Source: Candidatus Altimarinota bacterium
Lineage (GTDB): Bacteria > Patescibacteriota > Gracilibacteria > BD1-5 > UBA2023
DNA length: 64,000 bases
Direction of reading: 5' to 3'
Assembly (NCBI GenBank): GCA_043787675.1
Contig: JAYVUT010000003.1
Coordinates: forward strand, 2,418-66,417
The notes under the pieces: generated by a model
Databases searched by the model: none
What the model saw: only the letters and a program-made list of their open reading frames with translations
Told to the model about the DNA's origin: nothing
Part shown: positions 1 to 64,000 of the stretch, piece after piece
How the letters are laid out: each line of letters starts with the position of its first letter
How positions within the stretch are numbered: position 1 is the first letter of the stretch
Position numbers and translations under genes: made by a program

Positions 1-1077
1 GTCACTGTTCCTCAAGAATTCCTCGATGGACTCACTCCAGATCTCCAACTTCTCATTAAAAAATGAAAAGCTGAAGGGAGACTTGTCTATGATGAGGTTA
101 TATCTGCACTTCCCCCAGGCGATGATATTGAGATGATGGACGAGGTATTCTCTCGTCTTGCAAAACTACATATTGAGCTCGTAGATTCACTCGATCAGGA
201 AGATGTATTCAAAGATGCTGGCAAAAAGAAAGATGAGATCGATCTCTCTGAAATCTCTGATGACTCGATCCGTATGTATCTCAACGAGATCGGACGATTC
301 TCTCTTATTGATGCTGATGAAGAAGTCAGACTCGGTCATCTCATACAACAATGAGATCAAGAAGCTCGAAAAAGACTCGCTGAGGCCAATCTCCGTCTCG
401 TCGTATCGATCGCCAAGAAGTATATGGGACGATGACTCTGACTTCTAGATTTGGTGCAGGAGGGGAATGTTTGACTTTTTCGGGCCGTCGACAAGTTTGA
501 TCCGGATCGAGGATTCAAGTTCTCTACTTATGCCACATGGTGGATCCGTCAAGGGGTCACTCGTGCTATAGCGGATCAGGCTCGTACGATCCGAGTTCCT
601 GTGCACATGGTTGAGACTATCAATAAATTCAATCATACCTACCGTCGTCTCACTCAGGAACTGGCTCGTGAACCGCTCATGGAGGAGCTCGCACTCGAGC
701 TCGATATGGATGTTCGCAAGGTACGTCAGATCATGCGAATATCGCAAGATATACTATCACTCGATTCCCCTGTTGGAGGAGAAGAGGATACTACGCTCGG
801 TGACTTCGTAGAAGATGACAAGTATCTGACTCCAGAAAAAGCTACCAATCTTGCGATTCTCAAGGAGAACCTCTATGAGATGCTCGATTTTCTCACTCCT
901 CGAGAAAAAAAGATCGTCGTAATGCGGTTCGGTCTTGATGGAGGTGATATGCATACCCTCGAGGAGGTAGGACGAGAGTTCGGAGTGACACGTGAGCGAG
1001 TTCGTCAGATAGAGGCCAAGACTCTCGAGAAGCTCAGAACTCACCCGAGTGCCGATCGTATTAGGTTTTTTCACTAA
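1..1077 (+). CDS. rpoD: RNA polymerase primary sigma factor (sigma-70 family), 5' end outside window
   Basis: Frame 1 is open from base 1 to TAA 1075-1077 once TGA is read through. Region 2 reads [45 protein letters not shown] and region 4 reads [20 protein letters not shown]. In-frame TGA at 352, 433, 439 and 472 sit where sigma-70 proteins have Gly. Confidence 0.95.
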
Positions 1078-1085
1078 ATACTAAT

Positions 1086-1126
1086 AAAATATCCTTCTTG
1101 CAATTTATTGCAAGAAGGATATTTTA
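1086..1126. terminator. Bidirectional rho-independent terminator between rpoD and the convergent gene
   Basis: Perfect ~15-bp inverted repeat atatccttcttgcaa / ttgcaagaaggatat with loop ttta. It is flanked by an A-run and a T-run. Confidence 0.7.
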
Positions 1127-1137
1127 TTATATTAGGA

Positions 1138-1854
1138 CTATGCTGTGACTATTTCTTTTTCTTCATTTTTTTTGACAGCTATTCCTTGTTCTTTTTCGAG
1201 ATATTTCTTCATTTTTTCAGCATGCGAACGTTCTTCGAGATGTTTCTGATGTGTTGCCTCATCAGCTATCTCGAGTTCTGCGAAGTGCTCTTTTTGTCGT
1301 CTATGTTCATTCTCTGCAGCGATTGTATTTGCATCCTCAGCATCGATACCCTTGATCAAATCAGATACTTCCTCGATAGCATGACCTATATAGGTATTCG
1401 TATCATAGTATACTATCTCAGTTTCTTTTGTATCACTATTCGTCTCAAAGAGTCCTGATGAAGTTGTTTCAAGAGTATTTGCATCTACGAGAGATGATTG
1501 CATACTTGAGTCTGCCATATCAAATAATATTGATGTTTCAGCGATGCTCGCATCAGGTATAGCTATAGGAGTTATATCTTGTTGAGTTTGGATTGGTGTA
1601 GGTATTGCTATTTCTGGTACTGATTCATCGATGATAATCGAATCATCACTCTCAGTGATATTCATCGGTGTACCTGCCGGTACCTCGATGGGTGGTTGCA
1701 CGATATCTACTACTGATACCATCGGAGTTGCATCACTTATAATAATTGAATTTGCATTGATAAGTGGATCATCTTGTGAGGGATTACCTCATGTTTGTCC
1801 AGAGGATTGTGTTGTTGGAGCTGATTGCTTCAGGAGATCATCAAATAGTGACAT
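1138..1854 (-). CDS. Hypothetical acidic protein: N-terminus MSLFDDLL, disordered T/P/I/D/E-rich middle, C-terminal charged helix
   Basis: ATG at 1854, one in-frame TGA joins it to ORF 1138-1722, and there is a true TAG stop at 1138-1140. Its architecture parallels the gene at 11307-12251. Confidence 0.6.
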
Positions 1855-1961
1855 AGTGACTTGAGTTAAGAACTATATAGATATGATAGCAGTCTTCGAA
1901 ACAAAATGCAAATATCTGACTCTTTTTTGTATTTTTTCTACTTTTTCATATACTCTTCGGT

Positions 1962-60619: not shown

Positions 60620-61072
60620 ATGTTCACTTGGTCATTCGCATCTCGCAGAGATCACTCAGCATCATGGTACCTCGTTGCTATCGTTGTCATCCTGATGCTC
60701 GTCGTCTATGGTATCGTCGAGGGACTCTATCTGATGTCTGTTGTCGCATTTTTGTTTGCCGGAGTATATCTCCTCATGGAGAATAACTCGACTCCAGTAC
60801 TCCAGGTGACCGTGACCGAGAGAGGTATACAGGTTGGGGCATCATTTTATGACTATAGTCAGTTCTCTCGATTTGCGATGGTATCACGAGACAATATTCC
60901 AGCATTTATCCGGCTCTATCCAGTACGCAAGCTCTCCCCTATTATAGATATTCCTCTCTCAGACGAGATATCTCCCATCGATCTGAGATCCTATCTCGCG
61001 AGTATGATGGAGGAGGAACGTAATAATACAATATCCAATGCTGATGCTCTCATCCATGCGATGAAGCTCTAG
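60620..61072 (+). CDS. Hypothetical membrane protein (150 aa: two TM helices plus a soluble C-terminal domain)
   Basis: Intact ATG-to-TAG ORF starting 18 nt after the pilin-like gene. Confidence 0.6.
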   Translation: MFTWSFASRRDHSASWYLVAIVVILMLVVYGIVEGLYLMSVVAFLFAGVYLLMENNSTPVLQVTVTERGIQVGASFYDYSQFSRFAMVSRDNIPAFIRLYPVRKLSPIIDIPLSDEISPIDLRSYLASMMEEERNNTISNADALIHAMKL

Positions 61073-61159
61073 GGAATAAAAAATAAAAAGACCAAAAAGT
61101 TACGCTTTACTTATTGGTCTTTTTTCATATCATAACTCCCGAAATAATCCCATCTCACT

Positions 61160-63070
61160 ATGTCAGCAACTACCTACGATAGTTCCAATATCCAAGTTCT
61201 CGAAGGTCTCGAGCCAGTTCGCAAACGTCCTGGTATGTACATCGGATCGACTGATGAGCGAGGACTCCATCATCTCGTATGGGAGATCGTCGACAATTCT
61301 ATAGATGAGGCTATGGCGGGTCATGCGAGCCATATCACTGTTACTATGCATACTGACGGATCAGTGTCAGTTGAGGATGATGGTCGTGGTATCCCAGTCG
61401 ATCTCCATCCCAAGACTGGCAAGTCAGCACTCGAAACCGTGATGACAGTACTGCATGCAGGAGGCAAATTCGGGTGAGATGAGTCAGGATACAAGGTATC
61501 GGGTGGTCTCCATGGTGTCGGTGCATCAGTGGTCAATGCTCTCTCTACCAAGATGCAAGTCTGGGTACACAAGGATGGTCAGATCTACACACAATCATAC
61601 CAGATTGGTGTTCCTGATGGGGTCGTAGTGCCTACAGGAGCAAAAACCAAAAAACACGGTACGATCGTCAGATTCTGGCCTGATGCATCGATGTTCACGA
61701 CTACTATATTCGACTATGATACTATCCGTATACGACTGCGTCAGCAGGCCTATCTGACAAAAGGAATCACGATAACTCTCATGAATGAGTTCGAGGATAG
61801 TGCCTATAGATTCTTTTTTGAGTGAGGTATTGAGTCATATGTCCACTATCTCAACCGATCTACTGATCCTGTCACAGATGAGGTATTCTATGCTGACAAG
61901 CAAGTCGATCAGGTACAAGTTGAGATCGCTCTCCAATACAAAAAAGATGACTACAATGAGAAGCTCATATCATTCGTCAATAATGTCATCACTCCAGAGG
62001 GCGGTACGCATGTAGTCGGATTCAAGATGGCACTCACTCGTACCATCAACAAGTACGCTCGTGAGCAAGATATCCTCAAGGAAAAAGATACCAACCTCAC
62101 GAATGAAGATGTCGTCGAGGGACTCACTGTGATAATCTCTGTCAAGGTACCTGAGCCTCAATTCGAGTGACAAACCAAGTGAAAACTCGGAAATGCAGAA
62201 GTAAAATGAATAGCAGATAGGGCCATGGGTGAGGGATTCTATGATTTTCTCGCGGAGAATCCTCGAGCAGCCAAGCAGATCATCGAAAAGTGTCTCCTCG
62301 CCGCTCGTGCTCGTGCTGCAGCTCGCTCTGCTCGTGATACGATCATCCGCAAGTGAGCCCTTGAGGGTACTGGACTCCCAGGCAAGCTGGCTGATTGTAG
62401 TTCAAAAGATGCATCAAAATGTGAACTCTATATTGTCGAGGGTGATTCCGCAGGTGGATCAGCCAAACAGGGTCGAGATAGAGTGTTTCAGGCGATCCTC
62501 CCACTGCGTGGTAAGATTCTCAATACTGAGCAAGCTCGTTTAGACAAAATATTTGGCAATGCTGAGATCAAGAATCTCATCATCGGTCTCGGTACCTCTA
62601 TCGGAGAGTCATTTGACTACTCACGTCTTCGCTATCACCGTATCGTTATCATGACTGATGCGGATGTCGATGGAGCCCATATCCGTACACTTCTTTTGAC
62701 TTTTTTCTTCAGATACTTCCGTCCTCTAGTGGACAATGGTCATATATTCATAGCCAATCCTCCTCTCTACAAGCTCACCAAGGGCAAACAAGCCTGGTAC
62801 GTATACAATGAGGAACAAAAACTCAAAACTATCATAGATGAGGGTATCACGACAGAGTGAGTTCAGCGGTACAAGGGTCTCGGAGAGATGAATCCTGAGC
62901 AACTCTGGGAGACAACGATGGATCCAGTACAACGCAAGATGTTCCGTGTGACAGTCGAGGATGCTGAGCGAGCTGATGAGGTATTCCGTATACTCATGGG
63001 TGAGGATGTCCCTCCTCGCAAACACTTCATCCAGTCACGAGCCAAGACGGTTACCAATCTCGATGTATAG
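61160..63070 (+). CDS. gyrB: DNA gyrase subunit B
   Basis: [71 protein letters not shown] and [19 protein letters not shown]. Fragments share a frame. TAG stop at 63068-63070. Confidence 0.97.
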
Positions 63071-63073
63071 TCC

Positions 63074-63106
63074 AAATTTCTCTGAGTTATCTCAGAGAAA
63101 TTTTTA
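63074..63106. terminator. Bidirectional terminator between gyrB and folC
   Basis: 13-bp perfect stem aaatttctctgag / ctcagagaaattt with loop ttat. Confidence 0.75.
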
Positions 63107-64000
63107 TTTGCTCAAGAACTCTCCCATCATATAGAGACTACCGAATACTACGAAAAGATTATTCGGATATCTTTTTGCTTCAACAAAAATATCGTCAGTA
63201 GTCAATATGGTACTATTTTTTCAGAGTTTCTCTACCTCATCTGAGAGGAGTATTGCATCACATACACAGAATCCTTTTGATTTGATGATATTCCAGGATT
63301 CTATCTCTGGGAATATATCGAGTACGAGATGAGCTGATTTTCCTGATTTGAGATTGAACGCATATATGATATTATCCCATTTTCATTTTTCTCACTTGAG
63401 ATATTTTTTGAGTTCCACCATCCCTGCTATATTGTGAGCTCCATCGATGAGGATATTGGTCCTGAGATATTGGAGCCTCCCTGGATGATCGACCTCGAGG
63501 AGAGCCTTTTCGATGATTGCATATGGAGTTCACAAAAATATACCAGCCTCATAGGCAATACGGGCATTGGATATCTGATGACTTCCGAGGAGATTGGTTA
63601 TCACGGATCTCTCCTTTGGATACAGTATTCGAGATTGTCGATCATTCGCTATACTCTCGAGAGTTGTATTTTGTCCATAGAGTATGACAGGGGTTCTGGA
63701 CTTGATGATGCCTCACTTTTCTGTAGCGATCTCCTCTAGAGTATTGCCGAGGAACTCCATATGATCATATGATATACTCGTGATGATCGATATGAGTGGA
63801 GTGATGATATTGGTTGCATCGAGGCGACCTCACATCCCTACTTCCATGATAGCGTATTCACAGCCAATATCTCGAAAATAGAGCAGAGCAAGTAGTGTAC
63901 AACGCTCATAGTATGAGAGTACTCCATCATACTCCATGATCTGAGTGATATATATGACAAAATCAGATTCGGATATCAGTCACTTCTCAGTCTCAAATCG
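63104..64000 (-). CDS. folC: Folylpolyglutamate synthase / dihydrofolate synthase, 5' end outside window
   Basis: The minus frame is open from 64000. [49 protein letters not shown] is the Mur-ligase/FolC core. TAA stop at 63104-63106. Confidence 0.88.

Follow-up and report, generated by a model that had tools for sequence, protein, structure and literature searches.

Does UGA end translation in this stretch of DNA, or is it read as an amino acid and, if so, as which one? The stretch (hereafter the window) comprises 64,000 nucleotides of contig JAYVUT010000003.1 from a Candidatus Altimarinota bacterium and has a G+C content of 42.3%. A sequence-only reading of it had proposed that UGA is decoded as glycine throughout (translation table 25), that nearly every conserved gene is split by in-frame TGA and becomes full-length on read-through, that tryptophan (table 4) is excluded, and that the organism belongs to the Gracilibacteria or Absconditabacteria. 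The analysis reported here bears these proposals out, and indicates that the window is almost certainly a chromosomal fragment of a Gracilibacteria bacterium (BD1-5-type, within the Patescibacteria or candidate phyla radiation, CPR) using table 25. In such an organism UGA would be an ordinary sense codon for glycine, translation would end solely at UAA and UAG, and the remaining codons would keep their standard meanings.

When the window was tiled with stop-to-stop open reading frames (ORFs) under four codes, the standard code yielded 136 ORFs with a median length of 112 amino acids (aa) and 83% coverage. With TGA taken as sense, there were 60 ORFs with a median of 241 aa, and coverage rose to 95%. 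Reading through TAG (122 ORFs) or TAA (139 ORFs) brought no comparable gain, and the lengthening of ORFs is therefore specific to TGA. A curated map, for which ORFs were scored with a codon model trained on obvious genes and then checked against Pfam and Escherichia coli, contains 49 protein genes and four tRNAs (Table 1), fewer than the approximately 58 genes previously estimated. In-frame TGA is present in 45 of the 49 protein genes. It occurs 262 times among 18,827 codons, or 13.9 per 1000, and would make up 18% of the inferred glycine codons, while in-frame TAA or TAG is found in none of the 49. Pfam domains run contiguously over the TGA sites, as illustrated by Lactamase_B_2 (2-200/200) and NTPase_I-T (1-162/162).

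The identity of the residue is revealed by comparison with standard-code proteins. Seventeen window proteins were aligned to their E. coli K-12 orthologues (16 genome stretches), with TGA written as X. Of the 87 TGA codons that face a residue and not a gap, 48 (55%) are opposite glycine, and none is opposite tryptophan or cysteine. In the same alignments, GGA codons fall opposite glycine in 58% of cases, GGT, GGC and GGG in 69-70%, and TGG falls opposite tryptophan in 42%. A likelihood test, in which the probability of the E. coli residue given the window amino acid was calibrated on these alignments, returned glycine as the maximum-likelihood meaning of TGA, ahead of serine by 71 nats and of tryptophan by 128. 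Applied to the 61 sense codons, the procedure recovered the standard meaning of 60, and its sole miss, ATG, is an artefact that arises because the only Met codon was left out.

Individual proteins vary in how much they contribute. LepA has nine TGA codons; among 75 LepA/GUF1 homologues, most of them from eukaryotes, six of the corresponding columns are glycine in 69/73, 67/72, 68/70, 66/68, 65/68 and 52/65 sequences, and the remaining three codons lie in variable or indel columns. The four TGA codons of PheT all fall in variable columns; across 13 standard-code species, glycine ranks first at two of these (tied with lysine at one), and none contains tryptophan. GyrB, compared with a single E. 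coli PDB reference, has glycine at only two of seven sites, which is too noisy to stand alone, and the pooled statistics were used for this reason. The sequence-only reading had assigned TGA codons to invariant glycines in several proteins, and every coordinate it gave proved correct: 433 and 472 in RpoD, 43090 in ClpP, 40111 and 40093 in YchF, 62168 in GyrB, 63832 in the G-G-RLDATN motif of FolC, and 27917-27915 in an AbrB-type gene. Those in RpoD, YchF and FolC are indeed opposite glycine in E. coli (a further RpoD codon, at 439, is in a variable column), and the AbrB-type gene, at 27753-27998 on the minus strand, carries its TGA within G-Q-I-V-I-P and matches Pfam PF04014. For ClpP and GyrB the positions stand but the invariance does not, since E. 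coli has threonine in the former, where the best PDB chains have glycine, and serine in the latter.

An independent view is given by relatives compared as raw DNA. Four contigs (L002-L005), found by scanning GTDB species genomes with PheT, are syntenic with the window at 47-64 kb, and two further relatives (L018 and L019) were obtained through IleRS look-ups. The curated frames were aligned codon by codon, giving 14,955 codon pairs; only these frames were used, because off-frame ORFs of near-identical DNA also align and add CGA, AGA and TCA partners that swamp the signal. Opposite the window's TGA codons, the relatives have TGA 107 times, GGN 56 times (GGA 31, GGT 15, GGG 6, GGC 4), one-step neighbours of TGA six times, all remaining codons 31 times, and TGG not once. 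In the reverse direction, the relatives' TGA codons meet GGN in the window 103 times and again never TGG, which is thus absent from all 200 + 251 aligned TGA codon pairs. Conversely, TGG in the window is opposite TGG in 148 of 157 pairs and opposite TGA in none. At 40 of the 105 distinct TGA sites covered, at least one relative has GGN, and as exchange with GGT, GGG or GGC needs two substitutions, the pattern reflects selection for glycine and not mutational proximity. The relatives use TGA as the window does. As far as comparative data can do so, the E. coli and codon-exchange alignments together demonstrate that UGA is translated and that the residue is glycine.

The ends of the genes were also said to be sensible when only TAA and TAG terminate, and this part of the proposal holds. 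The 49 genes stop at TAA (35) or TAG (14), and the C-termini so defined lie 0-10 residues from the end of the E. coli alignment in RpoD, Map, FtsK, YchF, ClpP, RluD, LepA, PheT and Nth. The associated claim of adjacent hairpin terminators fared less evenly. Strong hairpins directly follow stops at 1082-1129, between the convergent RpoD gene and its neighbour, and at 5928-5957, after DnaE, with others just downstream of stops at 12750-12771, 14725-14755 and 47481-47500. Terminator-like sites are enriched at 1-20 kb (21, vs 10.2 +/- 3.7 in shuffles), but not at 40-60 kb (13, vs 10.1 +/- 3.5).

The remaining codons were followed in the same alignments. CGA is opposite arginine at 52 of 111 E. coli positions (47%), its top three residues being Arg, Lys and Glu. 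For CGG, where the sample is small (30-49 aligned codons), arginine takes 8 and lysine 7 of 30 positions, with Arg, Lys and Ala as the top three. Tryptophan is not among the commonest residues at either codon, and their partners in the relatives are CGN, AGR and AAR, never TGG. CGA, CGG and AGG therefore look like arginine codons, and all other codons look standard too. Some usage is odd for a genome of 42% G+C: CTC dominates among leucine codons (539 aligned, vs 11 TTA and 27 TTG), ATC outnumbers ATT among isoleucine codons (450 vs 95), and TAG is a common stop, in 14 of 49 genes.

How UGA would be decoded is suggested by published work on the clade. A dedicated tRNA-Gly(UCA), with G1:C72, C2:G71, G3:C70 and U73, would read the codon, and prfB, the gene for release factor 2 (RF2), would have been lost, so that RF1 would terminate at both UAA and UAG. 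Code 25 in Gracilibacteria/BD1-5 has been documented by Hanke et al. 2014 (PMC4032931) and Sieber et al. 2019 (PMC6851277). In the former study, proteomics of a BD1-5 bacterium identified 97 peptides unique to the glycine translation vs 3 for tryptophan; in the latter, all BD1-5 genomes then available lacked prfB, and a search of the closed genome under study did find prfA. Codetta inferred glycine for UGA in 13 of 15 Gracilibacteria species, and tRNA-UCA genes were classed as glycine acceptors through their acceptor-stem identity (PMC8629427). Among the 49 window genes (about 30 scanned with Pfam and most others identified by E. coli alignment), no release factor is apparent in these 64 kb.

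Other meanings of UGA must nevertheless be weighed. Were it still a stop, the interrupted genes would be pseudogenes, sequencing errors, or sites of selenocysteine insertion or programmed read-through, and the interruption of nearly all genes under the standard code is what such a view would take at face value. Its probability is close to nil. Every one of the 262 interruptions is a TGA, with no TAA, TAG or frameshift among them; frames, Pfam domains and homology run on past them; and six relatives keep either TGA or GGN at these sites, which points to purifying selection on a sense codon. Selenocysteine is excluded by the lack of cysteine opposite TGA and faces 262 sites in 45 genes, and a load of 13.9 UGA per 1000 codons far exceeds that of any known selenoproteome. 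Table 4, in which UGA is tryptophan, is used by Mycoplasmatales, several insect endosymbionts (Hodgkinia, Zinderia, Nasuia) and some Eggerthellaceae. TGA-only read-through under this code would restore long ORFs equally well, and tryptophan does stand at TGA columns in many database proteins of the relatives: at IleRS column 170, entries from close relatives have G 19 times and W 18 times. Such mixtures arise because pipelines used either code 25 or code 4, and database proteins were rejected as a reference on grounds of circularity, the residue at a TGA column being G or W according to the caller's code. Many public entries of the clade have evidently been translated with code 4, hence a wrong tryptophan, whereas the DNA at these columns is TGA or GGN and never TGG. 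The E. coli alignments place tryptophan opposite none of the 87 TGA codons, even though TGG finds it in 42% of cases, and both the likelihood deficit of tryptophan and the failure of TGG to exchange with the relatives' TGA point the same way. Table 4 is therefore excluded here.

Several observations do weigh against table 25. The name under which the relatives are filed decides little, as the NCBI label 'Candidatus Gracilibacteria' includes table 11 lineages, the recoded ones falling in GTDB class JAEDAM01 (gTranslate preprint); it is consequently the codon data, and not the name, that carry the claim about the code. About 45% of the aligned TGA positions are non-glycine in E. coli, yet GGA codons are non-glycine in 42%, and this proportion is expected divergence and not counter-evidence. 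The UCA anticodon is present in none of the window's four tRNAs (Lys-CUU, Gly-GCC, Ser-GGA and Gln-CUG, as called by ARAGORN), nor was a UCA tRNA found in approximately 95 kb of the relatives' DNA. A typical genome of the group is about 1.2-1.3 Mb, of which the window is only about 5%, so that any one tRNA gene would be expected to lie elsewhere, and its absence is uninformative. The same absence would nonetheless fit a glycine-decoding mechanism that dispenses with tRNA-Gly(UCA), whether through a modified or altered tRNA-Gly(UCC) or through ambiguous decoding (glycine with tryptophan, or glycine with termination) and low-level retention of RF2. Rare non-glycine peptides at UGA were seen by Hanke et al. 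(PMC4032931), and in other lineages UGA is read as a near-cognate codon by certain unusual tRNAs (PMC13092985). However, the two Gracilibacteria species to which Codetta assigned no UGA meaning lacked tRNA-Gly(UCA), encoded RF2, and were taken to use UGA as a stop (PMC8629427). In addition, short tRNA-UCA genes with glycine-type stems are easily found on TGA-recoded, low-GC metagenome contigs, and the strict lack of TGG at TGA columns speaks against appreciable insertion of tryptophan. Such a mechanism is thus very improbable. We give a comparably slim chance to the broader proposition that the lineage either decodes UGA as glycine non-canonically (no tRNA-Gly(UCA), RF2 retained, or ambiguous) or lies outside the recoded class JAEDAM01, in which case its code 25 would have an independent origin.

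The metagenome tRNAs came from a pattern scan, which returned at least four short glycine-like tRNA-UCA genes (L046, L055, L056 and L112) amid tRNA-Glu(UUC) and chance matches. The tRNA-UCA genes among the matches listed have GCG...CGCU acceptor stems, and some are on low-GC contigs whose ORFs lengthen with TGA read-through; they lie on unrelated recoded contigs, none of them linked to the window's genome. Glycine-like UCA tRNAs among these matches are also found on contigs of high G+C content, L056 (62%) and L049 (53%), and read-through of TGA in L056 extends the longest ORF from 179 to 367 codons. These could be phage suppressor tRNAs or belong to an unrecognised recoded lineage. Within the window, a repeat at approximately 37673-37770 on the plus strand is a degenerate copy of the adjoining tRNA-Ser(GGA), with which it shares the 5' half (GGAGAGGTCGCATAGTGGC...); its 'anticodon loop' is 8 nt long and its T arm is damaged. 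It was not called by ARAGORN and was missed by the Rfam tRNA model even at E <= 1, and is probably a tRNA pseudogene.

With respect to its placement, all of the nearest species genomes in GTDB bear the title 'Candidatus Gracilibacteria bacterium', with PheT 72-85% and GyrB 95-97% identical. The best PheT match among GTDB species representatives is 83% identical, and the exact genome is not among them. A search for IleRS homologues returned mostly Gracilibacteria names, at up to 79% identity vs 53% for a match named Absconditabacteria. Of the two lineages originally guessed, the closest genomes and the IleRS matches thus both favour Gracilibacteria. In GTDB, the code 25 organisms of Gracilibacteria/BD1-5 fall in order BD1-5 of class JAEDAM01, which also contains Absconditabacterales.

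The density of TGA across the genes listed in Table 1 is very uneven. Nine fall in the C-terminal S4-like part of TyrRS, within the last approximately 70 codons and including a TGA-TGA pair; the hypothetical gene at 54452-55036 has 10 in 194 codons and the VTT-domain gene at 20681-21247 has seven in 188, and Ndk, CutA and two other genes have none. The largest number, 24 (22 per 1000), is in the Eco57I/MmeI-like type IIG restriction-modification protein, which because of this load looks native to a UGA-recoded host and not a recent arrival. In the DEAD-box helicase, the C-terminal ~150 codons form a Gly/Ser/Arg/Tyr-rich repeat (GGGYRGG...) in which nearly all glycines are GGN and one is TGA. 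IleRS carries a His_Phos_1 insert at residues 746-918 (window ~17069-17587), with the catalytic core (18-701) before it and the anticodon-binding domain (941-1086) after it; IleRS entries of relatives have the same histidine-phosphatase insert, and some also NUDIX (PF00293) or Ser_hydrolase (PF06821). Two membrane proteins, at 10369-11265 and 60212-60601, match T4SS_pilin (PF18895), which many CPR bacteria encode.

Table 1. Genes of the 64-kb window in the curated map, with in-frame TGA codons and supporting observations. Percentages are protein identities; L numbers denote the relatives' loci.
Feature	Position	Strand	TGA	Observations
RpoD, N-terminus truncated at window start	1..1077	+	5 (64, 352, 433, 439, 472)	TAA stop; 54% to E. 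coli RpoD; 433 and 472 opposite Gly, 439 opposite Gln
Hypothetical acidic protein	1138..1854	-	1	TAG stop; good coding score; no Pfam match
DnaE (Pol III alpha)	1962..5927	+	17	TAA stop; 37% to E. coli DnaE over 1003 aa; Gly at 7/12 aligned TGA
DEAD-box helicase, Gly/Ser/Arg/Tyr-rich tail	6521..8125	+	1	Translation judged by eye
tRNA-Lys(CUU)	8251..8326	+		ARAGORN; Rfam 75.5 bits
vWA-domain protein	8391..9350	-	4	Pfam VWA_2 and VWA matches span TGA sites
Hypothetical protein	9420..9836	-	3	Coding score; no Pfam match
T4SS-pilin-like membrane protein	10369..11265	-	4	Pfam PF18895, three matched stretches; 51-63% to L018/L019 orthologues
Hypothetical low-complexity protein	11307..12251	-	4	Coding score; no Pfam match
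Small membrane protein	12393..12734	+	1	ORF and coding score; hairpin 12750-12771
GDYXXLXY-family protein	12757..13479	-	2	Pfam PF14345
DUF2157 membrane protein	13492..14718	-	7	Pfam PF09925
Metallo-beta-lactamase-fold protein	14769..15878	-	3	Pfam Lactamase_B_2 unbroken over TGA
IleRS with inserted His_Phos_1 domain	15971..19822	-	17	Pfam; 70-83% to L018/L019 orthologues
NTPase_I-T (YjjX-like)	20069..20611	-	2	Pfam PF01931 over both TGA
VTT-domain membrane protein	20681..21247	+	7	Pfam PF09335
MFS transporter	21288..22433	-	3	45% to L018 orthologue annotated MFS_1
RND (AcrB-like) permease	22509..25781	-	17	Aligned to E. coli AcrB, 1083 aa
HlyD-like membrane-fusion protein	25810..27666	-	11	Weak Pfam HlyD_3 match
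AbrB/MazE-type small protein	27753..27998	-	2 (one at 27917-27915)	G-Q-I-V-I-P motif; Pfam PF04014; six-frame reading, absent from first tiling
HtpX-like M48 protease	28128..29033	+	2	Pfam PF01435
Eco57I/MmeI-like type IIG methylase-endonuclease	29106..32345	-	24	Pfam PF07669, PF02384, PF20473
Methionine aminopeptidase	32382..33161	-	3	48% to E. coli Map; Gly at 2/2 aligned TGA
Doubtful ORF, may not be a real gene	33235..34059	+	8	Coding score only 0.13 per codon; no Pfam match; 3' end overlaps FtsK 3' end by 56 nt
FtsK	34004..36250	-	7	43% to E. coli FtsK motor domain; aligned TGA opposite Gly, Gly, gap
tRNA-Gly(GCC)	37395..37471	+		ARAGORN, Rfam
tRNA-Ser(GGA)	37786..37873	+		ARAGORN, Rfam
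Membrane protein	38002..38520	+	1	Coding score; no Pfam match
YchF GTPase/ATPase	39254..40342	-	4 (40111, 40093, 39694, 39328)	Opposite Gly, Gly, Leu, Gly; 51% to E. coli YchF
Polysaccharide deacetylase	40636..41685	-	5	Pfam PF01522
GT4 glycosyltransferase	41724..42863	-	10	Pfam PF00534
ClpP	42946..43566	+	1 (43090)	51% to E. coli ClpP (Thr there); Gly in best PDB chains
TyrRS	43570..44775	+	12	9 in C-terminal S4-like part; Pfam PF00579; E. coli TyrS residue 173 is Gly
CutA1	44788..45153	+	0	Pfam PF03091
DUF2177 membrane protein	45157..45561	+	4	Pfam PF09945 2-123/124
Membrane protein	46115..46888	+	1	ORF; no Pfam match
AMMECR1-like protein	46901..47446	+	3	Pfam PF01871
Endonuclease III	47466..48119	-	2	37% to E. 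coli Nth
Hypothetical membrane-anchored protein	48148..49221	-	7	ORF; no Pfam match
RbfA	49205..49558	-	1	Pfam PF02033
RluD-type pseudouridine synthase	49637..50659	-	3	33% to E. coli RluD, 85% to L004 orthologue
Ndk	50622..51062	-	0	Identical protein on a 3.2-kb Logan contig of SRR23617267 only, annotated PF00334
MscS-like protein	51126..52007	-	0	Weak Pfam PF00924 match
LepA	52023..53906	-	9	6/9 on near-invariant Gly columns (75 homologues); Gly at 7/8 aligned TGA in E. coli LepA
tRNA-Gln(CUG)	54329..54402	-		ARAGORN, Rfam; also in L002 and L004
Hypothetical protein	54452..55036	-	10	Low coding score; 61-67% to L002; no Pfam match
Small membrane protein	55105..55347	+	1	76-90% to L002/L004 orthologues
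RelA/SpoT homologue	55331..57514	-	12	34% to E. coli SpoT; Gly at 7/10 aligned TGA
PheT	57607..60075	-	4	72-85% to Gracilibacteria loci L002-L005; Trp at no TGA column in 13 standard-code species
T4SS-pilin-like small membrane protein	60212..60601	+	3	Pfam PF18895
Membrane protein	60620..61072	+	0	76-88% to L002-L005 orthologues
GyrB	61160..63070	+	7 (61475, 61823, 62168, 62180, 62207, 62354, 62858)	52% to E. coli GyrB, 95-97% to L002, L004, L005
FolC, N-terminus past window end	63104..64000	-	7	EVGM-TGA-GRLDATN, TGA opposite Gly in E. coli FolC

Glycine at UGA is, in this clade, already known biology, the code dating from 2013 and its proteomics from 2014, and is essential for annotation without being surprising. 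All further reading of the window hinges on the choice of code. Table 11 cuts the 49 genes at 262 TGA codons, leaving approximately 300 pieces; under table 4, they reach full length, yet about 1.4% of their residues are a wrong tryptophan, in many cases where glycine is conserved; under table 25, they are correct. For public protein collections this is a live problem, as illustrated by the clade's IleRS entries, some with G and others with W where the DNA has TGA.

Among known systems, code 4 resembles that of the window in the stop codon captured and in what presumably had to come first, the loss of RF2, but the residue inserted in the window is glycine and not tryptophan. The code of Absconditabacteria (SR1), reportedly described by Campbell et al. 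in 2013, is closer, as UGA is likewise glycine and the lineage is a sister that shares its class in GTDB. In Absconditabacteria, and in some Gracilibacteria as well, CGA and CGG have been predicted to encode tryptophan (Shulgina & Eddy 2021, PMC8629427). The window differs from Absconditabacteria in retaining both as arginine codons, and its IleRS is only about 53% identical to the match of that name. The closest correspondence is with Gracilibacteria/BD1-5, in which Rinke et al. are said to have described code 25 in 2013: UGA falls at glycine positions, termination is confined to UAA and UAG, genes of CPR type (T4SS-pilin-like) are present, and the nearest relatives both bear that name and show the exchange of TGA with GGN. 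At 42% G+C, the window lies above the 29-33% of the best-studied Gracilibacteria/BD1-5, albeit inside the published range of 21-53% (PMC8629427), and nothing essential differs between them.

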